Shown here piece by piece: positions 4,246 through 61,212 of a stretch of 64,000 bases of DNA. Below the pieces are notes generated by a model, which was given only the letters and a program-made list of their open reading frames with translations, searched no databases and was not told where the DNA came from. The first letter of the stretch is position 1. Each line of letters opens with the position of its first letter. A program made the position numbers and the translations under genes. Origin of the DNA: Chiloscyllium plagiosum (Eukaryota). Location of the stretch: contig NC_057753.1 of the NCBI RefSeq assembly GCF_004010195.1, forward strand, positions 4,748,887-4,812,886. The letters are read 5' to 3'.

Positions 4246-5022
4246 TTACTCATGAACTTGGTGGTGTCTCAGCAGTCTAGAAGACTGACAAAATCCCTTC
4301 CCACACACTGAGCAAGTGAACGGCCTCTGCCCAGTGTGAAGCAGATGGTGTTCAGTAAGTTGAGATGATCGTCTGAACCCAGTCCCACAGTTAGAGCACC
4401 TGAAAGGTCTCTCATCAGTGTGAATACGTTGATGGGACATCAATTCCCTGGAACTCTTGTAGCACTTCTCACAGTCTGAGCATTTAAATGGTCTCTCATC
4501 AGTGTGAACCCGCTGGTGTGTCAAAAGGTTGGATGAATTAGTGAATCTCTTGTCACATTCAGAACAGTTGAAGGGCCTTTCTCCAGTGTGAACTCGCTGG
4601 TGTCTCAACAGGCTGGATGACTGAGTGAATCCTCTCCCACACTCAGAGCAGGTGAATGGCCTCTCTCCAGTGTGAACTCGCTGGTGTTCAGTGAGTTGAG
4701 ATGATCGTTTGAATCCAGACCCACAGTGGGAACAGTTGAATGGTCTCTCATTAGAGTGTACACGTTGATGGGACATTAGTTTCTCAGAGCTTTTAAAACA
4801 GTTCCCACAGTCAAAACATTTGAAAGGTCTTTCTTCAGAGTGAATCAGCTGATGTTTCAGCAGATGGGCTACCTGGGCGTATTCTTTCCCACACTTGGTG
4901 CAGGTGAATGGTCTTTCCCCAGTGTGACTACGTCGGTGAATTTCCACCTGAGAAGGATAATGAAATCCCTTCCCACAGTCTCCACATTTCCAGAGTTTAT
5001 GAACAGAGCTTTTTCCTGCCAT
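4246..5022 (-). CDS. ZNF-1: tandem C2H2 zinc-finger protein, 9 fingers, no effector domain
   Basis: ORF 4246-5040 with ATG at 5022 in TTGAACATGG context; TGERP/TDERP linkers; acceptor TTTCACAG before 5132; stop TAA. Confidence 0.93.
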
Positions 5023-5189
5023 GTTCAAATCTGATGACACTCAAGTTATATTGTATTGGACAGTTCTAACAAATCCTGATGTGTGATGTTTGGTTTCAGT
5101 TTCACAAGTGTAAACCCTCCCCTTCTAATATCCTGTGAAACTGATTTCAAACAAAACAAAAACCAGTGACACAGAATATACAAAATGCA

Positions 5190-6560: not shown

Positions 6561-7001
6561 AACTGGAACTGGGAGATGCTACAAATGCTGGGTTTACATT
6601 TCAGCAGCGGAATGCGGGAAGAGTATGGTTTGCAGACCAACATCTCTGAGAAACAAGCTGGTAGGACGATCTCTTCCCACATTTGGAACAAATAAACGAT
6701 AATACGCTGAATTGACAAGTCTGTGTGGTCTGCACACTGCTAAGAATCTTGCAAACTCTTTTTCCAGGGTAATAGGAGGAGGGGAATTTACAAACAGAAA
6801 GCTGAAACCCAATATCACGTGGAGGTTTGACAACGTCACTCAATTCCTTCCGATCAGACTTTGAATGTACACAGATTGTTCTGTCTTTTGGGAGAACTGG
6901 GAAAGCACTGACTGGAACAAGTACGAACATTGCACTTAAGCATTGCGTGTGTGGGAAGAATCTTTATCTGGTTGTCCAACCCGGCCAGTAACGTTGACAC
7001 C

Positions 7002-8027
7002 ATGAAAAAACAATGGAAATGTGAGGATTGTGGTAAAGGATTCAAATATTCATGCCGGCTGGAAAGTCATCGCCGGAGTCACACTGGGGAGAAACCCTAC
7101 ATTTGTTCCATGTGTGGAAAGAGATTTACTCAAACAATGTCCCTGATGTCACACCAGCGAATTCACACCGAGGAGAGGCCCTACAGCTGCACTCACTGTG
7201 GGAAGAGGTTCCGGTATTCTTCCACCCTCACTGCACACCAGCGCATCCACACAGGGGAGAGACCGTTCACCTGCTCAGTGTGTGGGAAGGGATTTACCCA
7301 GTCATTTGTTTTGGTGAGGCACCAGAGAGTTCACACTGGGGAGCGACCGTTCAGCTGCTCCGTTTGTGGGAAGGGATTTGCTCGGTTATGCAGCCTCCAG
7401 TCACATCACCGAGTTCACGGATCCGAGGGGATGCCGTTCAGTTGCACTTCCTGCGGAAAAAGGTTCAGGCATTCTTCCACACTCACAGCACACCAGCGCA
7501 CGCACACTGGGGAGAGGCCCTATATCTGCGCCGTGTGTGGGAAGGGCTTCACTCAGTCGCGGTACTTACTGACGCACCAGCGAATTCACACTGGGGAGAG
7601 ACCGTTCACCTGTTCTGTGTGCGGGAAGTCATTCACTCAGTCCTCTCACCTGCTGTCACACCAGCGAAATCACACGCAGGAGTGTCCATTCAGCTGCGCT
7701 TCCTGTGGGAAAAGGTTCAAGCATTCTTCCACTCTCGCAGTGCACCAGAGAATCCACACTGGGGAGAAGCCCTTCCCCTGCACTTACTGTGGGAAAAGGT
7801 TCAACAGTTCATCCACCCTCACTGCACACCAGAGGATTCACACCGGGGAAAAGCCATTCACTTGCTCTGTCTGTGAGAAGAGGTTCAGTCAGTCCTTCGA
7901 CCTGGTGAGGCACCAGCGAGTTCACACTGGTGATAGACCGTTCACTTGCCCTGTGTGTGGCAAGGGATTTGCTCGGTTATTTGGACTCCAGTCACACCAC
8001 AGAATCCACACGACAGTGAATACATAA
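7002..8027 (+). CDS. ZNF-2: tandem C2H2 zinc-finger protein, 12 fingers
   Basis: ORF 6930-8027 with first ATG at 7002 (ACCATG); acceptor TTTTTCCAG near 6767; AATAAA at 8145. Confidence 0.93.
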   Translation: MKKQWKCEDCGKGFKYSCRLESHRRSHTGEKPYICSMCGKRFTQTMSLMSHQRIHTEERPYSCTHCGKRFRYSSTLTAHQRIHTGERPFTCSVCGKGFTQSFVLVRHQRVHTGERPFSCSVCGKGFARLCSLQSHHRVHGSEGMPFSCTSCGKRFRHSSTLTAHQRTHTGERPYICAVCGKGFTQSRYLLTHQRIHTGERPFTCSVCGKSFTQSSHLLSHQRNHTQECPFSCASCGKRFKHSSTLAVHQRIHTGEKPFPCTYCGKRFNSSSTLTAHQRIHTGEKPFTCSVCEKRFSQSFDLVRHQRVHTGDRPFTCPVCGKGFARLFGLQSHHRIHTTVNT

Positions 8028-11136: not shown

Positions 11137-11330
11137 CGCCCCTCCCCCAAGTCCCTCCTCCCTACCTTTTATCTTAGCCCGCTTGGCACACCTTCCTCAT
11201 TCCTGAAGAAGGGCTTATGCCCGAAACGTCAATTCTCCTGCTCCTTGGTTGCTGCCTGACCTGCTGCGCTTTTCCAGCAACACATTTTTAAGCTCTGATC
11301 TCCAGCATCTGCAGTCCTCACTTTCTCCTA
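11137..11330 (+). mobile_element. Penelope-like element 3' end (family A)
   Basis: Contains hammerhead CTGAAGAAGGGCTTATGCCCGAAACGTC and tail GATCTCCAGCATCTGCAGTCCTCACTTTCTCCTA. Confidence 0.75.
11203..11230 (+). ncRNA. Minimal type I hammerhead ribozyme motif
   Basis: CUGAAGA-A-GGGC(UUAU)GCCC-GAAACGUC: conserved core, helix II, palindromic helix III ACGU; helix I weak. Confidence 0.75.
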
Positions 11331-15265: not shown

Positions 15266-15883
15266 TTACTTGTGAACTCGCTGGTGCCTCAGCATGTGGG
15301 ATGACTGAGTGAATCCCTTCCCACATTCTGAGCACGTGAATGGCCTCTCCCCAGTGTGAACCCGCTGGTGTGTCAGCAGGTCGGACGACTGAGTGAATCC
15401 CTTCCCACAGTCAGAGCAGGTGAACGGTCTCTCTCCAGCGTTTACTCGCTGGTGTCTCAGCAGATGCGATGACCGAGTGAATCCCTTCCCGCACTGCAGG
15501 CAGGCAAACGGCCTCTCCCCTGTGTGAATTCGCTGGTGTGTCAGCAGATTAGATGACCGAGTGAATCCCTTCCCACACTGTGGGCAGGTGAACGGCTTCT
15601 GCCCGGTGTGAACGCGCTGATGTGACAGCAGGTTGGAATAATGAGCAAAGCCTTTTCCACACTCTGAGCACATGAACGGCCTCTCGCCAGTGTGACAGCG
15701 TAGATGAATTTCCAGTTTGGATGGGTAAGTGAATCCCTTCCCACACTCCCCACATTTCCACGGTTTCTCCCCAGTGTGACTGCACTGGTGCTTTGACAAG
15801 TCAGATGAGCGACCGAAGACTTGTCCACATGCAGAACAAGTGTACAGTTTCTCCCTAGTGTGAACAGAACTTTTCCCTTCCAT
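15266..15883 (-). CDS. ZNF-3: C2H2 zinc-finger protein, 7 fingers (finger 5 has His to Asn)
   Basis: ORF 15266-15889 with ATG at 15883; acceptor TTTTACAG before 15985; predicted 9.8-kb intron to the exon at 25779-25884. Confidence 0.92.
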
Positions 15884-16339
15884 TTTCAAAATCCGCTGAT
15901 AAGTGGGTTATGAGAAATCAAGCGAATCTGTCAGATCTGGAAGTGATGCTCAGTTTGGAGTTTCCTGACTGCAAATCCTCCCCTTCTGTAAAACTGATTT
16001 TAAACATAAGGAGAAACAAAAAAAAGTGAACTCAGAAAAGAACAGGCAGGTTGTGACAGAGATAAACGAATCAAGTACTGCCTGGAGCTGATACTTGGAC
16101 AGTAAAGTGACAATTAAAGCTCACATCTTAAAATTTCAACCTGGTTCACTAGTCTCCTTCAGGGAAGGGAAACAGTTCGACTTGGTACAAGACTTCACAA
16201 GGCGACAGAGGTGGGAAGAGGCAGAGAGAAGAATTTAACACATCCCCGACTGTAACAGAACCTTGCTCATTCACACACCATTACGATGCTCATTGAGGTG
16301 CACAGTTTTGTAAATCCAACACCACCCAACTCAGAGTGA

Positions 16340-19140: not shown

Positions 19141-19657
19141 GTATCAAACCTCCTTTCCACAGTCCCACTTCTCCAATCATATTCATGCACTGAGGTCAAC
19201 CTGACGGTTGGTCAGAGCTACTTGCAGATGACAACATTCAGCTGGGTATAGTCAAGAATATGGAAAACATTGCAAAACACAGGAAGATAAGAGTTTACAA
19301 AATGCTCACTGACATGACACCAGCGAAATGTTCAAGAGGAAAAGGCAGAGCAGAGGCTGCAATATCCCACCCCCGACTCATCTCCCCCAGTGCTGAGCAC
19401 TTCACAGAGTAATTTTCCAGCTCACAGCTTCCTGACCCTTAACTCAGACCTGCCAAGTAATAGGACACAATGAGAGACACTGTGCTGTACCCATTCCCTG
19501 ATTCAATCATGTGTCGTTATCCCTCCGCTCACTCCCCAAGCGATTCCCATCCTCGCTGATCTGTCTCCCTGTTTAACTGGGTCATTCCTCTCCATTCCCC
19601 TGACAGTGATCCTCACACACGGACGTTGAACATCATCCCCTGCATCTGAAATGTAAA

Positions 19658-19888
19658 CGGGAAGAAGAAAGTGAGGTCTGCAGATGCTGGAGATCAGAGC
19701 TGAAAATGTGTTGCTGGAAAAGCGCAGCAGGTCAGGCAGCATCCAGGGAACAGGAGAATCGACGTTTCGGGCATAAGCCCTTCTTCAGGAATCCTGAAGA
19801 AGGGCTTATGCCCGAAACGTCGATTCTCCTGTTCCCTGGATGCTGCCTGACCTGCTGCACTTTTCCAGCAACACATTTTCAGCTCTGA
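19658..19888. mobile_element. Palindromic PLE-derived element: 97-bp arms, 1-nt spacer, two hammerheads, 13-bp TSD
   Basis: 19694-19790 is the reverse complement of 19792-19888 with 1 mismatch; TCTGAAATGTAAA at 19645-19657 and 19884-19896. Confidence 0.9.
19788..19827 (+). ncRNA. Hammerhead ribozyme motif with a 6-bp helix I
   Basis: GGAAUC-CUGAAGA-A-GGGC UUAU GCCC-GAAACGUC^GAUUCU; mirror copy on the minus strand at 19761-19788. Confidence 0.8.
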
Positions 19889-20120
19889 AATGTAAATGTC
19901 AAGCATCGAGTGTCATGTGGCCAGGACTTCCATTTTTAAACAAAATTCCATTGACAGGATGCCGGCATCATTGGCGAGGCCAACGCTCCGCTTTTCCAGC
20001 AACACATTTTCAGCTCTGAAATGTAAATGTTAAGCATCGAGTGTCATGTGGCCAGGACTTCCATTTTTAAACAAAAATCCATTGACAGGATGCCGGCATC
20101 ATTGGCGAGGCCAACGCTCC
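19860..20120. repeat. 131-bp tandem duplication starting in the PLE end
   Basis: 19861 repeated at 19992, near-identical. Confidence 0.9.
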
Positions 20121-25075: not shown

Positions 25076-25413
25076 AGACATGTGGGAGTCATTTTGAAGG
25101 GATGAATATCTTTTAGTTCACAGACCTGAAACGTTGACCCAGTTTCTGCTTCCACAGAAGAAGACTCCATTCCTGATGAAGGGCTTGTGTCTCAAAGGTC
25201 AATTCTCCTGCTCCTCGGATGCTGTCTGACAGGCTGTGCTTTTGGAGACATGTGGGAGTCATTTTGAAGGGATGAATATCTTTTAGTTCACAGACCTGAA
25301 ACGTTGACCCAGTTTCTGCTTCCACAGAAGCAGACTCCATTCCTGATGAAGGGCTTGTGTCTCAAAGGTCAATTCTCCTGCTCCACGATGCTGTCTGACA
25401 GGCTGTGCTTTTG
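25075..25413. repeat. 170-bp tandem duplication containing nested PLE fragments and degenerate hammerheads
   Basis: 25075 repeated at 25245; CTGATGAAGGGC at 25173 and 25343. Confidence 0.9.
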
Positions 25414-25778
25414 CAGCACCACACTCTTCGACCCGGATCTCCAGTTCTCTTTTTTTTCCCCCCCACAGAAGCTGTCTGACCTGCTCAGTGCCTCCAACAT
25501 GGCCAATCTGTGACCTGTTGCTCATCAATCCCTTATATTTAAACTTCAGACTAACCAACGAGTGTTTCTTCATTCACTCCTGAAAGCTCAGGCCACGAGG
25601 AGTCTTTTTCTTTATATATTTGCTGGACCCTTTCTAATAAATTTAACCAATGGAGGTGAGATGTCATTCATGCTCCCTGAGGCTATTTCTCCCTCCTCAG
25701 GGAACTGAACGCGCAACTACAGGGGTGGTCTCAGCAGGACTGTGAAAATCTGGAAGCATTTCTAGCCCCGAAACGTAC

Positions 25779-25884: not shown

Positions 25885-26019
25885 CTGTTTTAAAAAAAAA
25901 CGGTGGTTACAAAGGAGAACAAAAAAAACTCTCAGAAAACACACAGACAACATTTCTCTTGGTTAGAGCTGATTGTGTGCAAGTCCCTCCCAGATGACCC
26001 ACTTTCAAAAGACAGCTGC

Positions 26020-26278
26020 GCATGCACCCCGTCGTACCTTTCCTGTATAAAGATGGCTGTCACGCATGCACCCTGTCGTACCTTTCCTGTATAAAGATGG
26101 CTGCATGCACCCTGTCGTACCTTTCCTGTATAAAGATGGCTGTCGCGCATGCACCCTGTCGTACCTTTCCTGTATAAAGATGGGCATGCACCCTGTCGTA
26201 CCTTTCCTGTATAAAGATGGCTGTCGCGCATGCACCCTGTCGTACCTTGCCTGTATAAAGATGGCCATTGCGCATGCG
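26020..26278. repeat. Minisatellite, 6 units of 37-44 bp, each with YY1-like AAGATGG(C) and GCATGC
   Basis: Units start at 26020, 26064, 26103, 26147, 26184 and 26228. Confidence 0.95.
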
Positions 26279-26279
26279 T

Positions 26280-27115
26280 CCCACCGATCATAGTTCCCAA
26301 TTGAGATGGCGGCGGTAACCGGAGCCGATCATCGCGTGACGCCCTCAACCCGTTTGCTGAGAACGCGTCACCGGTAGATTCTCACTTCTCACTTCTCATC
26401 TCTCTCTCTCTCTTTCTCTGGAGGTAGGCACTGGGTATTTACGAGACCTTCGGGTCCAATGTATCACCCTCTGCGCTGCGCCGCCCCACATCTGACAACT
26501 TCTTCAACAGATACGCGCGACCGACGGTTGATCACGTGCCGTATGGCTAACCCCGCCTTTCGCTCACTCCGATTGGTTGGCGGACGCGCCCGGGGCGTGA
26601 GGTAGGTGGAGTTCTTCTATTGGTCTCTCCTGGCCGTCAATCATTCGCCGCAGCTCGCCCCTCCCTGCGCAGTGGCGGGCCGGCTGGCAGTGATTTGAAG
26701 AGCGCATGCGCTATCGCCATTTTTTTTCCTCCGGGCCGCCGACGGTCGGTGTGTTCTTTGTCTGCTCTGCAAGCGACGTGCAGCAGGCGGACAGGGAGAA
26801 GATGAGAGATAGGGCAGCGGACGCGCGGGAAGGTTCTGTACACGTCTTGGGTCAGTTCTAACGCGAAATGGCAATCTTCGTGCCTCCCGTTCGCAACAAA
26901 CCAGAAAATGGCTCCAGGTTTCGTCGCGGTGTCAGATCCCGGGGACTTGCCGCCATCTTTATTCAGGGTATTGGACTGCGCGTCCGCCATCTTTGTAGGG
27001 GGCAAGGTCTGGAAGGAGTGGGAGGAGCTTGTAACCCATTGTTTAGAGTGGAGACCAAATTGTCCATGAAACTGCATGAACCTTTCACACCCAATGTCTT
27101 TATTCATGAGACAGG
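26280..27115. promoter_or_regulatory. CpG island, bidirectional promoter of ZNF-3/ZNF-4 plus intron-1 element
   Basis: Reverse CCAAT near 26572 and 26619; NRF1-like GCGCATGCGC 26702; YY1-like motifs at about 26304, 26716, 26951 and 26985. Confidence 0.8.
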
Positions 27116-29413: not shown

Positions 29414-29940
29414 CACCACCAAGTTTCTCCAAGCCACGAATCATCCTGAATTGCAGCTGTATCAATGTTGTTCCTTCACTGTTGCTGGGTGTAAAATCCT
29501 GGAGCTCATTTCCTAACAGCACAATGGATGCAACAGTTCAAGAAGGCTGCTCTCCGCCACTTTTAAGAGAAGTTATGGATAAAGATTAAATGCGGATCAC
29601 GCCAGTGATACCCACATTCCACAAATGCATAATAAACAAACCCTAATCTAGAAGCTAAAATTCCTCATCCCTTGAACCATTCTTGTGAATCACCTCTGCA
29701 CACTCTCAGTGCCATATTCTTCATAATGAGTGGTTATCACTGATTTGCACAAACCCACATACTCTGCATTTTTGTGTGATTTTATTGCACTCCCTGGGTA
29801 TGGCCTCAACTGAGAGACTTTTCTGTGATCCCAGCATGGGATAAAGGTTTGTGATGTGGATAAATATCATTTGTAGAGTTTGGATTTTGAACGAGTGGCA
29901 TATAGATGTTGGGATCAAAAAGTGTGGTGCTGGAAAAGCA

Positions 29941-30203
29941 CTAGGCGAAAATGGGGACTGCAGATGCTGGAGATCAGAGTCAAGATTAGAGTGGTGCTGG
30001 AAAAGCACAACGGGTCAGATAGCGTCTGACGAGCAGGAGAGTCGACATTTCAGGCATAAGCCCTTCGACAATTCCCGATGAAGGTCTTATGCCCAAAACG
30101 TCGACTCTGCTGCTCCTCCAATACTCCCGGACCTGCTGTGCTTTTCCAGCGCCACACTTTTTGACTCTGATCTCCAACATCTGCAGTCCTCACTTTCACC
30201 TAG
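29941..30203. mobile_element. Older, diverged palindromic PLE-derived element
   Basis: CTAGG...CCTAG ends, imperfect arms centred near 30070, two degenerate hammerheads. Confidence 0.8.
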
Positions 30204-30574
30204 CATATGGATGTTGGTTCCTTCTTTGTGAAAGGTTTCAGAAAGCCAAGCCTGATAGACTTGTAAACTTTCGAGAGTATAATTGAATCTGTGCTGAGAC
30301 GATGGATTTACAGCAGACAATGTAAACATTGCAGCCATTAGCTTGCTTTTGGCTTAAAATAACCTAGGATTGACTTTAGCTCACAAAACCCAGAGATTGA
30401 AAGCTCCTCGTGCATTTTATTGTGGAGACCTGACTGCGTTCAGAAGTAAATATAATTTCTGTCCTGGAAAGGATTATTGGACAAGAAAGCAGTCATATTG
30501 GTATAAAAGTTTAGATTGTGAAACTTGTAGTTCAGTAGTGTTTCATTAGAGATTTGCGGAGTATTCAGGTTAAG

Positions 30575-34380: not shown

Positions 34381-34824
34381 GGAGGGAACTTGGAGATAGT
34401 GAAAACTACTATCTCCAAGAGGTCCTTCCAAGAGGTTGCAGGAGTATGTGAAAACTATTATCTCCAAGTTCCCTTTGGTTGCACGGATAAAATCACTTTC
34501 TTCCACTCTCTCTGTCTCATTTACCAGCTTCCCAATCATGGAGGCCACAGTCTTTTGAAGGTGAACAGTTGGGTTTTTAACGACAATACAGCAGCTTTCA
34601 CCGTCACATCTCCCTAGTGCCAGCCCCACAAGTGACCGGATTTGTTCAGTTCAATTCCACAAGTTTGCAATTCCTTGTGTTACCCTGCACTCCCTGTTGT
34701 CTGTTTTGAACCGATTTTCACAGGGCTATATGAGGTGTGATCGAGAAACCCGAACCAGATGTCCCATCGTGATCTGGTGAGGTCACTCACTTTATTGTAG
34801 CCTGGGCATCATCGGAGTTTGAAC

Positions 34825-36192
34825 ATGGAAGGTGAAGGCACTGTGCACAGTGGGGAGGAATTGTACACATGTTTTGTGTGTGGGCGAGGCTTCAGCCGAT
34901 CATCGGACCTGTTAGAACATAAATGTAGTGGGGAGAAACTGTGGAAATGTGGGGTCTATGAGGGTGAATCCAGATCCTTGTCTAAACTGGAAACACACTG
35001 GCGCAGTCAGACCACGGAAGGACTCTTCACCTTCTCTGACAGTGGGAAGGCATTCACTTCCTCTTCCGCCCTGCTGGCACAGCAATGGGGTCACGCTGAG
35101 GAGAGACCTTTCAAATGCTTAGACTGCACCAAATGCTTCACAAGTTCTTGGGACCTGATTTTTCATCAATGCGTTCACACTGACGAGAGACCGTTCAGGT
35201 GCGCTCAGTGTGGGACTGGCTTCCGAACATCGTCTGACCTCCTCGCGCACCAGCCAGTTCACACTGGCGAGAGGCCGTTCGTCTGCTCAGAGTGTGGGAA
35301 GGGATTCGCGCAGAGCTCTACCCTTGTGAAACATCGGCGCGTTCACACTGGCGAGAAACCATTCACCTGCTCTCAGTGTGGGGAGGGATTCGCTCAGTCA
35401 TCTCACCTCGTGAGACACCAACGCATTCACACTGGGGAAAGACCGTTCACCTGCTCCGAGTGCGGGAAGGGATTCACTCAGTCGTCCACCTTGCTGGCAC
35501 ACCAGAGGCTTCACACCGGGGAGAGACCATTCATCTGCTCAGAGTGTGGGAAGGGATTCACTCAGTCGTCCAAGCTGTTGATACACCAGAGGCTTCACAC
35601 TGATGAGAGACCATTTCAGTGCCCAGACTGTGCAAAGCGGTTTAAAAGTTCTGGGGAACTGATGTCCCATCAGCGTGTTCACACTGACGAGAGACCATTC
35701 AGGTGCTCTCACTGTGCAATTGGGTTCAAACGATCATCTGATCTCACAGTACACCAGCGGGTTCACACTGGGGAGAGGCCGTTCACCTGCTCCCAGTGTG
35801 GGAAGGGATTCACTTCCTCATCCACCCTGCTGATACACCAGCGAATTCACACTGGGGAGAGGCCCTTTATCTGCTCCGAGTGTGGGAAGGGATTCACTGA
35901 GTTAGCCAGCTTGCTGAAACACCGGAGTACTCACAGCGAGGAGAGGCCATTCACCTGCTCAGAGTGTGGGAAGGGATTCAGTCGGTCGTCAACGCTGGTG
36001 ACTCACTGGCGAGTTCACACGGGGGAAAGGCCTTTCATCTGCTTCAGCTGTGGGAAGACGTTCACTCAATTATGCAGTCTGTTGAGACACCAGCGGGTTC
36101 ACACTGGGGAGAGGCCATTCACCTGCTCAGATTGTGGGAAGGGATTCACTCGATCATCTACCCTGATGAAACATCAGAAAATTCATAACTAA
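34825..36192 (+). CDS. ZNF-4: 13 intact C2H2 fingers preceded by 3 degenerate fingers
   Basis: ORF 34819-36192 with ATG at 34825 (TTGAACATGG); acceptor TTTTCACAG before 34724; AATAAA at 36317. Confidence 0.94.
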
Positions 36193-46809: not shown

Positions 46810-48155
46810 ACATGATTTGGAGGAGCCGGTGTTGCACTGGGGTGTACAAAGTTAAAAATCACACAACATCAGTAGTCTAACAGGTTTATTTGGAAGCACT
46901 AGCTTTCAGAGTGCTGCTCCTTCATCAGGTGGTTGTGGAGTTTAAGATCATAAGACATAGAATTTATAGCAATAGTTTACAGTGTGATGCAACTGAAATT
47001 ATTTATTGAAAAAGACCTGGATTGTTAGGTCTCTCACCTTTTAGAATGACCATGTTGGTTTCAGTTCTTTCATATGTAAAGCCCGGAACGTTTTTTTTTA
47101 AAGTTACATTCTCATGTGAACTTTAACAACAGGTGTCATGCTCAATTGAACTAGAAAAATGTTTCAGAAGACCAGGTTATTGTCCAACAAGTTTATTTAT
47201 ATGCACTAGCTTTTGGAGCACTGCTCCTTTATCAGGTGGTTGTGGAGTATGATGAAGGAGCCTGATGAAGGAGCAGTGTTTCGAAAGCTAGTGCTTCCAA
47301 ATAAACCTGTTGGACTATAACCTGGTGCTGTGTGATTTTTAACTTTGTCCACCCCAGTGCAACACCGACATGTTTTAGAACATTGTGTGCTGGGCTGGGC
47401 TAGTAAATTGCACTGTCAGCGCCACCTGGTGTGAAGCTTAGGATCACTCTCTGCATCCTCTCACACACCACTCTACACTCATGCACACACATATACACTC
47501 TGTCTCACAGACACTCACAACCCACCATCCCAGACACACACACTCCTACAGATACACACACACTCACACCTGCACCCCCTCACAAACTTAGACAATCTAC
47601 ACTCACATACACACACATATACACTCTCCCACACTCACAACCCCTCACCCCAGACAGACACATAAACAAAGACCCACATGCACACTTTTACATATACGTT
47701 TGTGGAGTGAATTTGTACTTGCAGAGTTACATTGTACTTTGCTCAAAAACTGCATGAATTCATTACGATTCTGTTATCTCACTTTTTAGATTAGAATCAG
47801 ACTAAACATTATGGCACAGACAGAGAACACAGGGGGCTAACACCTTCAACTTATTGTCTGGCTAATACCAATTGTTACACTTAAACTGAGAATGTAACTT
47901 TTTAAAAAAAGTTTTGTGATTTACACATGAATGAAGTGAAACTAACATGGTATTTGAACAGATGAAAGACTCAACAAACAATCAAGATATTTTTCAATGT
48001 ATAATTTCAGTTACATCACACTGTAAACTTTCGCTATAAATTCTGTGCCTTACAATTGTGTGCTCCACAACCACCTGATCAAGGAGCGGCGCTCCGAAAG
48101 CTAGTGCTTCCAATTAAACCTGTTGGACTATAGCCTGGTGTTGTGTGATTTTTAT
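46810..48155. mobile_element. PLE family B compound insertion with four hammerhead motifs and a CA-rich tract
   Basis: Motifs at 46897-46931 (-, intact core), 47206-47240 (-, degenerate), 47262-47290 (+) and 48072-48106 (+, G8 to C); 46810-47150 and 47860-48155 are inverted copies. Confidence 0.8.
46897..46931 (-). ncRNA. Minimal hammerhead ribozyme motif (family B)
   Basis: CAC-CUGAUGA-A-GGAG cagca CUCU-GAAAGCUA^GUG; helix I CAC/GUG, palindromic AGCU. Confidence 0.75.
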
Positions 48156-48312: not shown

Positions 48313-49344
48313 CTAAACAACGTGAACTCGCTGGTGTGTCAGCAGGGTGGATGAACGAGTGAATTCCTTCCCGCACTCTGAGCAGGTGAACGGTGTCTCC
48401 CTGGTGTGAGCTCGGCGGTGTCTCAGCAGGTTGAACGACCGAGTGAAGCTACTCCCACACTCACGGCAGGTGAATGGTCTCTCTCCGGTGTGAACTCGCT
48501 GGTGTTCTGTGAGCTGAGATGACCGCCCGAACCCAGTCCCACAGTGAGAGCACATGAATGGTCTCTCGCCAGTGTGAGTCCTTTGATGGGACGTAAGTTC
48601 CCCAGCACTTTTATAGCTTTTCCCACAGCCTGTACACTTAAAAGGTCTCCTGTCAGTGTGAACCCGGTGGTGTTTCAGTAAGTCAGACGATTGAGTGAAT
48701 CTTCTCCCACACATGGAGCAAGAGAACGGTCTTTCCCCAGTGTGAACTCGCTGGTGTACAGTTAATTGAGATGAGTGCCTGAATCTAGCCCCACATTGAA
48801 TGCATCTGAATGGTCTCTCATTAGTGTGAACACGCTGATGAGACATCAGTTCCCCAGAACTTTTAAAGCACTTCTCACAGTCTGGACATTTAAAAGGTCT
48901 CTCCTTAGTGTGAACCCGCTGGTGTATCAGCAGATGGGATGACGTACTGAATCCTTTCCCACACTTGGAGCAGGTGAATGGTCTCTCCCCAGTGTGAACT
49001 CTCTGGTGTATCAGCAGGGTGTGAAAGTGAGCAAAATCCTTCCCACACTCAGAGCAGGTGAACAGCTTTTCTGCAGTGTGACTGCGCCGGTGAATTTCCA
49101 GTTCGGATGGATAATTGAATCCCTTCCCACAGTCCCTACATTTCCATGGTTTCTCCCCAGTGTGACTGTGCTGATGTGTTTCCAACTGGGATGGGTAAGT
49201 GAATCGCTTCCCACAGTCCGCACATTTGCAGGGCTTTTCCCCGTAGTGAATGCATTTGTGTCTCGACAAGCCAGATGATCGCTTGAAACCTCGCCCACAC
49301 ATAGAACATCTGTACGGTTTTTCTCCGCTGCCTTTATCTTCCAT
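48313..49344 (-). CDS. ZNF-5: C2H2 zinc-finger protein, 12 fingers
   Basis: 343-aa ORF, ATG in CTGAACATGG context; acceptor ATTTCACAG before 49557. Confidence 0.94.
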
Positions 49345-49395
49345 GTTCAGAACCCAATGATACTCAAGTTACAGTAAATTGGGTAATTCTGGCAG

Positions 49396-52020: not shown

Positions 52021-52276
52021 TGTGTGGTATATTCCCTTCTCTGAAGGACATTAATGAACCAGTTGAGTGTTTATAGCAATTCAGGTACTTCCCTGGTCCC
52101 TTTTCTTTCCCTAGTGCTGTTAGCACAGATTACTAGTTTGATTCAGCTCAATTTTGAAAATTTCCTTTGTGATTTTGTGGATTCTCTCACTGTTCCTTTT
52201 TTCCCCATTTCACAGGATGTTAGAGGGTGAAGATTTATATTTGGAAAACGTAAATTAAATATCAAATCAGAATCTG

Positions 52277-53188
52277 ATGGAGGTTACCCAATCTGTACTC
52301 GGAACTTCATCTGATTTAAACGTCGAAGAAGGCACCATTCACTGTGGGGAGAAACCATATACGTGTTCTGAGTGTGGAATAGGATTCAGCCGATCATCTG
52401 GCCTGCTGAAGCACAAACGCAGTCACATCAGAGAGAAGGCTTGGAAATGCGGCGACTGTGGGAAGGGATTCAATTACCCATCAGACCTGGAAAGGCACCG
52501 ACGTGGTCACACTGGACAGAAACCGTGGAAATGTGGAGACTGCGGGAAGGGATTCAATTATCCTTCTCAGGTGGAAATTCACCGACGTAGTCACACTGGG
52601 GAAAGACCATTCACCTGCTCCAAGTGTGGGAAGGAATACGCCCAGGTAGCTCATCTGCTGAAACATCAGCTGGTTCACACTGACGAGAGACCTTATAAAT
52701 GTCCAGATTGCGGGACCTCCTTCAAAAGTTCTGAGAAATTGATATCCCACCAACCTGTGCACACTGACGAGAGGCCATTCAGATGCGCTGACTGTGGGAC
52801 TGCATTCAAGCGATCATCTCAACTCATTGTCCACCAGCGAATTCACACTGGGGAGAGGCCGTTCACCTGCTCTGTGTGTGGGAAGGGATTCATTCAGTCA
52901 TTCCACCTGATTACGCACCAGCGGGTTCACACTGATGAGAGACCTTTTCAGTGTCCGGTCTGTGAGAAGTGCTACAAAAGTTCCAGGGAACTGATGAACC
53001 ATCAACGGGTTCACACTGACGAAAGACCGTTCAGATGCTCTCACTGTGGGACTGGATTCAGGCAATCCTCTCAACTCACTGTACACCAGAGAATTCACAC
53101 TGGTGAGAGGCCATTCACATGCTCCAAATGTGGGAAGGCATTTACTCAGTTATCCACATTGCTGAGACATCAGCGAGTTCACAGATAA
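52277..53188 (+). CDS. ZNF-6: C2H2 zinc-finger protein, 10 fingers
   Basis: 303-aa ORF; acceptor TTTCACAG before 52216; closest paralog is ZNF-1. Confidence 0.93.
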
Positions 53189-59575: not shown

Positions 59576-60174
59576 TCTTATGATCTTCACCAAGACATAA
59601 TCAGCAACATTTGTATCTATGAGGAGATATTAGGCCTGGTGACCAACAGCATAGTGAATGCTTTCAGGGTTTTATTACAGGGAGAATGTGATTGATGGTC
59701 AGAGAGAGGAAATTCTGAGTCCAGTTAGGAATTGTTAAAGAGGCCGGAATGAAGACTGACGCAGACATCTCAGGAGGGTTGTACAGCTGGAAGAGCTTAC
59801 AGAGAAAGGCATGACCATAACCACAACGGGAAAGACGGACGAGAATTTGAAAACCTCTGCTTCTTAACTTGGGAGCCTAGGTTACTGAGCACAGAGGGTG
59901 ATGGGTGAAGAAAACTCGATGTTAGTATCACACAGGCAGTTTTGGGTGACCTCGAGACTAAGAGGAGGTGAGTTTGCCAGCCTCATGCGAATGACTCGAT
60001 TCATTCAGCTCAATTTTACATCCTGCCTTTGTGTTTTTGCGGGTGCTCTCAAACTTGATTTGTTGCGTGTTGAATCGATTTCACAGGGTTTCAGCAGGAG
60101 AGGGTGTGCAGCTGAGAAACTCAATCCAGACGTCAGTCGGTTTATTGCAACCTGAGGGTCGTTGGGTTTTGAAC

Positions 60175-61212
60175 ATGGAAGGAAACGGCACCGCTCACAC
60201 GGGAGAGAAGCCGTACACGTGTTCGGAGTGCGGTCGAGGCTTCAGCCAGTCATCCGACCTGTTAAGGCACAAGCGCTGTCACACTGGGGAGAAACCGTAC
60301 ACGTGTCCCGAGTGTGGGCGAGCCTTCAGCCAGTCATCCGGCCTGTCAGAACATCAGTGTAGTCACACCGGGCAGAAACCGTGGAAATGCGGGGACTGTG
60401 GGAAGGGATTCATTTCCCCGTCAAAGCTGGAGACTCATCGGCGCAGTCACACCGGGGAGAGGCCGTTCACCTGCTCCACGTGCGGGAAGGGATTCACTGC
60501 CTCTTCCCAACTCCGGAGGCACCAGCGAGTTCACACCGGGGAGTGGCTGGTTACCTGCTCTGACTGTGGAAAGGGGTTCACTCAGTCAACCCACCTCCTC
60601 GAGCACCAGCGGGTCCACACCGGGGAGAAGCCATTCACCTGCTCCGAGTGTGGCAAGGGCTTCACTCAGTCATCCCACCTGCTCAAACACCAGAGAGTTC
60701 ACACCGGGGAGAGGCCATTCACCTGCTGCGTGTGCGGGAAGGGATTCACTCAGTCCTCCAACCTGCTGTTACACCAGCGAGTGCACACCGGGGAGAGACC
60801 CTTCACCTGCTCTGAATGTGGGAAGGGTTTCACGGTGTCGTCCGACCTGCTGAGACACCAGCGGGTTCACACCGATGAGAGACCTTTCAAATGCTCAGAC
60901 TGCGGGAAGTGCTTCAAAAGCTCCGGGGACCTGATGTCTCATCAACGGGTTCACACCGACGAGAGACCGTTCATTTGCTCTGACTGTGGGGCTGGCTTCA
61001 GGCGATCCTCGCAACTTACTGTGCACCAGCGCGTCCACACTGGGGAGAGACCGTTCGCCTGCCCCGAGTGTGGGAAGGGATTCCCTCAGTTATCCCACTT
61101 GCTGAAACATCAGCGAATTCACACTGGAGAGAGACCGTTCACCTGCAGCAAGTGTGAGAGAGGATTCACTCAGTTATCGCACCTGCTGAGACACCAGCGC
61201 GTTCACCAGTAA
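60175..61212 (+). CDS. ZNF-7: C2H2 zinc-finger protein, 12 fingers
   Basis: ORF 60031-61212 with ATG at 60175 (TTGAACATGG); acceptor TTTCACAG before 60087. Confidence 0.94.

Follow-up and report, generated by a model that had tools for sequence, protein, structure and literature searches.

The near-perfect palindrome described here lies in a 64,000-nt stretch of the Chiloscyllium plagiosum genome (contig NC_057753.1, positions 4,748,887 to 4,812,886; hereafter the window). It is confirmed as a genuine DNA structure, and it probably arose in one insertion in which two hammerhead-bearing pseudo-LTR (pLTR) stubs of a Penelope-like element (PLE) were joined head to head from two short cDNAs, their extent being limited by the start of the RNA. 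The single locus is ordinary: it is real and common, it is not a self-copying ribozyme hairpin, and it probably represents a by-product. For EN+ Penelope elements a head-to-head layout, with a tail on one side and a duplicated target, is already known (PMC3846280, PMC8557442; here and below, published work is cited for the parts of each source that were available).

Structure and Authenticity of the Palindrome

The palindrome consists of two 97-nt arms around a single centre A, with one mismatch between them (19723 C / 19859 A), and it is flanked by an identical 13-mer that forms the target-site duplication (Table 1). Among the short-spacer palindromes of the window it is the top-scoring one, with a score of 94, the runners-up reaching 39 and 21. 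The first-pass annotation of this region had described 97-bp arms, a 1-nt spacer, one mismatch and a 13-bp duplication, all of which were found again at 19645-19896. Positions within the element are numbered from +1, the A five bases ahead of the hammerhead core. Since the left arm extends about 28 nt past the symmetric part, to about 19666, and is followed there by about 8 non-native bases, and since the right copy of the target duplication overlaps the right arm by 5 nt, the insertion unit is asymmetric and carries the Penelope 'tail'.

Table 1. Coordinates of the insertion, of the adjoining duplication and of the zinc-finger ORFs in the window
Feature	Coordinates	Strand	Evidence or remark
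Left target-site duplication copy, 13 nt	19645..19657	.	Single copy at the empty site of a related organism
Long-arm tail (native ~+100 to +127) and ~8 outer non-native bases	19658..19693	-	Hundreds of contigs diverge at 19666
Left (long) arm, outward-pointing pLTR stub of a Penelope-like element	19694..19790	-	Hammerhead core 19788 down to 19761
Stub joint; inferred 5-nt annealing zone with unpaired centre base 19791	19789..19793	.	1,746 exact copies; orientation 15 vs 14
Right (short) arm, pLTR stub, native +3 to +99	19792..19888	+	Last 5 nt common to target
Predicted minimal type I hammerhead	19788..19827	+	Motif scan and fold
Hammerhead helix I	19788-19793 with 19822-19827		
Hammerhead core	from 19794		
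Hammerhead helix II	19802-19813		
Predicted hammerhead cut	after 19821		
Right target-site duplication copy, 13 nt	19884..19896	.	
~130-nt tandem duplication spanning right-arm end and flank	19859..20119	+	
C2H2 ORF	4246-5040	-	
C2H2 ORF	6912-8027	+	
C2H2 ORF	15266-15907	-	
C2H2 ORF	34801-36192	+	
C2H2 ORF	48313-49368	-	
C2H2 ORF	52259-53188	+	
C2H2 ORF	59995-61212	+	

The left outer junction is present in independent contigs from three studies of the same organism and the right outer junction, from the right arm to the right flank, in contigs of one run; in a related organism a contig joins 19626 to 20015 with one target copy, which represents the empty site. That the palindrome is an artefact of assembly or of fold-back during library preparation is extremely improbable. 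No bridging contig for the centre was found among those listed, and the adjoining 130-nt duplication resembles an assembly effect; against this stand the opposite-facing outer junctions in independent runs, the empty site in the related organism, the target duplication, the unequal arms and the thousands of similar structures. The mismatch at 19859 was considered as proof against an artefact and was dropped, because the neighbouring duplication may be two alleles. The second copy in that duplication has G at the mismatch position of the palindrome. Other runs show a single, mosaic version of it, with the segment 19913-19966 uncovered in three of four runs and 20031 T>C seen in all four, and the duplication may consist of two alleles assembled in tandem or be private to the assembled animal.

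The Parent Element

The arm is the hammerhead-bearing pLTR end of a PLE, which appears to be of the Neptune or Nematis type. At four loci (L092, L093, L095 and L219) RT motifs are followed by a nuclease of the GIY-YIG type and then by the arm, these motifs having been identified by eye against PMC8557442. The nuclease of the parent gave a match to Pfam PF01541 at E=0.0014, short of the cut-off of that profile, and a Pfam scan of three other broken frames at L092 returned no match. Between RT and endonuclease, L092, L093 and L219 carry a CX4CxxC linker, and because a CX2-5CxxC linker fits the definition in PMC8557442, the parent was assigned to Neptune or Nematis. The fetched loci, which contain assembly gaps, yielded no intact full-length parent. 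Hallmarks of EN+ PLEs are present, namely the inverted 5' copy, the one-ended tail of 30-40 nt and the target duplication. An exact 36-mer from the young arm occurs 28,477 times in the genome.

As in other EN+ PLEs, the pLTR recurs at the ORF start and at the 3' end. The arm runs on into an ORF start in six of 30 loci, and in a set of 30 loci of this latter kind 24 have a second arm downstream (partial tandems). In 12 of these 24 the downstream arm begins at -9 to +12 and is joined directly to an early ORF position, the joints (L201-L230) reaching ORF positions of about +247 to +1075; such joints are what run-off followed by a template jump would give. Upstream of the arm there is a long native pyrimidine tract (window 11137-11200, L031-L060), at the end of which, some 24 nt short of +1, a splice acceptor may lie.

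Related insertions are found elsewhere in the window. The earlier observation that the palindromic form recurs holds for 29941-30203, an older copy of the same family, and for 47171-47326 as far as the layout is concerned, the hammerhead family there being a different one. The former lies in a head-to-head insertion of the older subfamily (29896-30220) in which both arms are long; a further partial arm is found on its left, and there is probably a target duplication of 15 nt. The latter (47171-47326, plus 46928) is from a second family that carries hammerheads and is likewise arranged head to head; this family has 907 short joints in the genome and arms that begin nine bases before the core. 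A tandem duplication of about 170 nt at 25130-25460 holds two decayed hammerhead arms in the same orientation, and in the flanks of L021 and L004 frames resembling RT and nuclease, from another Penelope-type family, adjoin or underlie the palindromes.

Two Arm Lengths at the Outer Ends

The 3' ends of 94 young arms (the first 100 listed, minus six in three head-to-head pairs that belong to other loci) are bimodal, with 53 at +87-102 and 41 at +124-137. An inverted piece of arm lies no more than 200 nt upstream in 52 of the 94, a few of these perhaps being unrelated neighbours; the solo stubs use both 3' ends and have the same 5' point. The two lengths are strongly paired. The 84 N-free insertions (out of 87 head-to-head insertions, pooled from loci chosen in different ways) comprise 67 of long with short arm, 11 of long with truncated, three of short with truncated, two of long with long and one other; pairs of two short arms, expected in about a third of cases under independent choice, are absent from all 84. 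Flank repeats of at least 11 nt accompany 67 of these insertions, with a peak at 13-16 nt and a control maximum of 8. We infer that each nick uses one of two start sites. The arm ends at about +95 and +130 resemble the situation in Poseidon of the green anole, whose protein begins reverse transcription at two internal sites, one at either limit of the tail; this protein cuts and extends both target strands and is predicted to be a dimer, and the ribozyme is dispensable (PMC11167929).

The Inner Ends of the Arms

At the inner side the arms share a 5' point. Among the same 94 arms, 73 start at -5 to +17 and none at -6 to -34, the remainder either reaching at least 35 nt upstream (13 arms) or starting at +25 to +33 (8 arms). 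The cut of the ribozyme was ruled out as the 5' limit, only 148 joints being centred on it versus 6,345 head-to-head joints at +1.

The base preceding +1 is informative where it is non-native. In hand counts of the first 100 listed rows, from one contig, this base is G in 60 cases, A in 24 (11 of which are the even centre) and T in 16, and the excess of G is significant (p ~3e-11 against 0.28); before +2, taken as a comparison, G is found in 16 of 100 listed. The older subfamily shows 11 G versus 10 A in the non-native rows among 100 listed. In the second family 28 of 50 listed joints reach its own start, with the same added base in 19 (of 20 non-native cases), the native base in eight and another in one, the count of added bases being inflated by the C-rich partner arm. 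The partial-tandem arms at -1/+1 (n=7) have the native C in five cases, G in one and A in one. Untemplated 5' G in L1 and SVA copies has been taken as a copied cap (PMC4859970).

The region of +26 to +33 was compared with the downstream promoter element of Drosophila Penelope and set aside, the likeness being weak (5/8 by eye). The bases round +1 match the Initiator consensus. Promoters of the Inr type are present in Penelope pLTRs (PMC2377424, PMC3846280).

Joints across the Genome

The exact 21-nt centre of the palindrome occurs 1,746 times in the genome (887 + 859; control 0) and the even-palindrome centre, the other of the two commonest, 841 times, among 6,345 head-to-head joints with spacers of 0-12 nt. 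A hand count of 50 listed joints gave 13 with the exact centre (two of them in the older subfamily), six of the even type, five of a third type and 26 others, many of the latter with short pLTR-derived filler. Other recurrent joints, formed at short homologies between the inverted arm and native sequence in both orientations, were found at L051, L052 and L191 and at L068, L117, L126, L167 and L180, and other pairs have core-to-core spacings from 50 nt to several kb.

The two arms of one insertion are closely related to each other. In 30 exact-centre loci the subfamily variants switch together in both arms; the arm haplotypes, compared at 13 diagnostic sites, agree fully in 39 of the 55 complete pairs (mean 10.6 and maximum 18 in 2,000 shuffles), and four private variants are each common to both arms. 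This concordance fits an origin from the same RNA molecule and from the same source copy alike. The other 16 pairs differ at diagnostic sites, mostly by single transitions and in a few cases at 2-3 sites (L006, L110), which means that two RNAs took part in some of the insertions.

Neither a fixed centre nor a fixed orientation of the arms, as a master copy would provide, was found. The centres vary, and of the centre bases in 29 exact-centre copies 15 belong to the long arm and 14 to the short one (L009 and L025, too short or rearranged, being omitted). The long arm reaches further 5' in 33 of 79 pairs, the short arm in 37, and both reach equally far in nine; with a margin of more than 4 nt the figures are 12 versus 14. 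The data fit joints assembled afresh at each insertion, not inherited from a hairpin master, with a convergent recurrence of the centre. The genome-wide search for the exact centre that had been suggested thus confirms its recurrence, and the mobile hairpin family that such recurrence might have indicated is not borne out. As to the two origins put forward in the first-pass annotation, the varying centres and both orientations support a product of PLE inversion during insertion and speak against a non-autonomous hairpin element.

Proposed Mechanism of Insertion and Its Alternatives

In the mechanism that we propose, the RNA of the element would start at +1, probably as a capped Pol II transcript, and an RT-endonuclease, of which the anole relative is predicted to form a dimer, would nick both target strands 13-16 nt apart. 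Priming would take place near +130 from one nick and near +95 from the second, as a rule with a single RNA, or RNAs from one source copy, as template, and both cDNAs would run off the capped 5' end, often gaining one C. The two identical 3' ends would then pair through five bases around a central A·A mismatch, or through some other short homology, before being filled in; the mismatch would be repaired in either direction. The ribozyme cut does not determine where the joint lies. Annealing with one added C would explain both the commonest centre and its random orientation. The added base could also be a cap-independent terminal addition.

A related possibility is that two cDNAs are joined in the same manner but with their 5' limit set by an endonuclease cut in the element's own copy or by a block to the RT, not by the RNA start. 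The anole enzyme, which is of another clade, prefers a 3-base AT-rich motif near the ORF-pLTR junction that equals the first three bases of the arm (PMC11167929), and this offers an alternative origin of the 5' point; the native C at -1 in five of seven partial-tandem joints and the weak G signal in the older subfamily point the same way. Cutting, however, would add no G before +1, and in the second family the arms stop in another sequence, which lies nine bases ahead of the core, so that we regard this limit as quite unlikely.

The published reading preferred for palindromes at inverted junctions is self-priming, in which a single nucleic acid turns back on itself at the joint, so that copying yields a hairpin (PMC3846280); an antisense RNA template was proposed there for the Adineta elements, the point being left open. 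Such folding would account for the fact that the arms are usually of the same haplotype and have private variants in common, and a 3-nt loop can be drawn at the centre. We nevertheless consider it unlikely for the present joints. Simple snap-back of the cDNA predicts that the long arm always lies further 5' and is ruled out by the asymmetry counts (33 versus 37, and 15 versus 14 for the exact centre), and the antisense-RNA version gives no reason for the common 5' point of the solo stubs. Moreover, the short arms end where solo insertions end, some pairs join two different known haplotypes, and an added G is possible on both arms of one joint. Propagation of a non-autonomous hairpin family, copied whole from palindromic masters by the Penelope enzyme, would agree with the 1,746 identical centres and with the uniform size and target duplications, yet it is very unlikely: one and the same centre is shared by several subfamily haplotypes, the two arms of which switch in concert, both orientations occur within one subfamily, only 13 of 50 listed joints have the exact centre, and longer asymmetric pairs of up to several kb exist. 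A read-through hairpin RNA would, in addition, have no cause to stop at +95 in the antisense arm. Hairpins may occasionally be re-copied.

The joining of two RNA-start-limited cDNAs may also be part of something broader. One may tentatively see in all these structures fossil 'strong-stop' products: a dimeric enzyme would prime both nicks at two positions near the capped 5' end of one RNA, and the run-off cDNAs would anneal to give a palindrome, join the target to give a solo stub, or jump on the RNA to give a pLTR or a partial tandem. This extension is quite possible, and we hold it with less confidence than the joining itself.

Hammerhead Folding and Host Context

The claim that each strand encodes a hammerhead agrees with the motif scan, which placed the cores at 19794 (+) and 19788 (-). 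Core boxes, helix II and the NUH cut site are all present, as in a minimal type I hammerhead; an Rfam scan gave no hammerhead match at E<=1, the only hits being chance matches to miRNA hairpins below the gathering scores. In the MFE structure of a 43-nt fragment of the + strand, helix I (6 bp) and helix II form at -13.0 kcal/mol. The 6-bp helix I that had been noted is thus reproduced on this strand, and it forms neither on the minus strand nor in the copy at 11203. A short word recurs after the cut site, and the inverted arm provides its complement; the helix results from this and is a by-product of the joint.

The fold of the whole element is another matter. Its hairpin is predicted at -204.6 kcal/mol (z = -24 vs 200 shuffles) and the fold constrained to contain the ribozyme at -151.3 kcal/mol, so that the hairpin is favoured by a predicted 53 kcal/mol and the ribozyme fold is predicted to be inaccessible in RNA of the element. 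Whichever strand is transcribed, the complement of the sense hammerhead arm precedes that arm in the transcript, and minimal PLE hammerheads are inactive as monomers, a second sense copy being needed (PMC4209133). Of the earlier suggestion that a long duplex would compete with the ribozyme fold, the duplex across the palindrome is upheld as a prediction, and real competition is unlikely in view of the energy gap and the order of the arms. As a ribozyme the product is probably inactive, and any transcript of it would be a long RNA duplex; near-perfect 95-bp hairpins, present in thousands, might enter dsRNA pathways, for instance as substrates of Dicer or ADAR or as a source of siRNA.

The location in an intron of ZNF-3 is plausible from the zinc-finger ORF at 15266-15907 and the CpG island mentioned below. 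This ORF lies on the minus strand, so that it is the weaker form of the hammerhead that would be present in an intronic transcript. The seven C2H2 zinc-finger ORFs of the window are spread over 4246-61212 in both orientations, and a CpG island at 26001-27000 may be a shared zinc-finger promoter.

Comparison with Known Systems

EN+ PLE units with an inverted pLTR and a one-sided tail have been described for Pen2a_Av of Adineta (PMC3846280), in a general scheme (PMC8557442) and for Penelope of D. virilis (PMC2377424). Our joints resemble them in the head-to-head inverted pLTR, the 30-40-nt tail on one side only, the target duplication, the pLTR hammerhead and the microhomology at the joints. Unlike in those units, the repeats here enclose no ORF, each part terminates at the 5' limit of the pLTR stub, and the whole is about 230 nt long and present in thousands of copies. 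The published reading of the EN+ units, in the available parts of these sources, is antisense self-priming or is left unresolved, whereas the present data favour two primed cDNAs.

The closest biochemical parallel is Poseidon of the green anole, PAc, in which two internal starts likewise lie close to the 5' end of the RNA, with about 35 nt between them, cutting and extension take place on both target strands, and the hammerhead cut is not mirrored in the copies (PMC11167929). PAc, however, is of another clade, without the linker zinc finger, and the available part of its account is without head-to-head stubs, a cap signature or the pairing of long and short arms. Twin priming of L1 (PMC4859970, citing Ostertag and Kazazian 2001) is similar in that two nicks prime two cDNAs which are joined with small indels; the L1 cDNAs copy different parts of the RNA and give an inversion without duplication, whereas here both copy the same 5' 95 nt and give a palindrome.

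With the minimal type I hammerheads of metazoan PLEs the arm shares the lack of helix III, the palindromic bases before the cut and the short helix I (PMC4209133). The same source reports opposite-strand hammerhead pairs 100-700 bp apart in Schistosoma; in contrast to the hammerheads described there, the cores are here 5 nt apart and fully complementary, and a duplex is predicted, not a ribozyme. Non-LTR retrozymes (bioRxiv 10.64898/2026.07.22.740005) are also ORF-less, hammerhead-bearing and derived from PLE pLTRs, but in the part of that source that was available they are head-to-tail arrays thought to replicate via circles. The present units do not have the head-to-tail arrangement with a hammerhead in each unit: they are head to head, with one sense core per strand and no sign of replication of the unit.

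In the literature, judged by titles and abstract openings and with few subscription journals covered, we found nothing on ORF-less head-to-head pLTR stubs, a PLE cap signature, a strong-stop model, paired start sites or end-annealing. PMC8557442 treats the origin of the inverted repeats and of the one-sided tail of PLEs as unsettled, and the in vitro study of the anole enzyme leaves the later steps to be explained. From this point of view the thousands of young joints in the genome of C. plagiosum may be considered a natural experiment, which points to start sites used in pairs, to cDNAs that run off a defined end of the RNA and to the annealing of their ends. The value of the joints is mechanistic, and each of the proposed steps is testable in the existing in vitro system. 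If the broader strong-stop reading is true, one scheme would cover the inverted repeat, the one-sided tail and the pseudo-LTR of these elements, in place of antisense self-priming.
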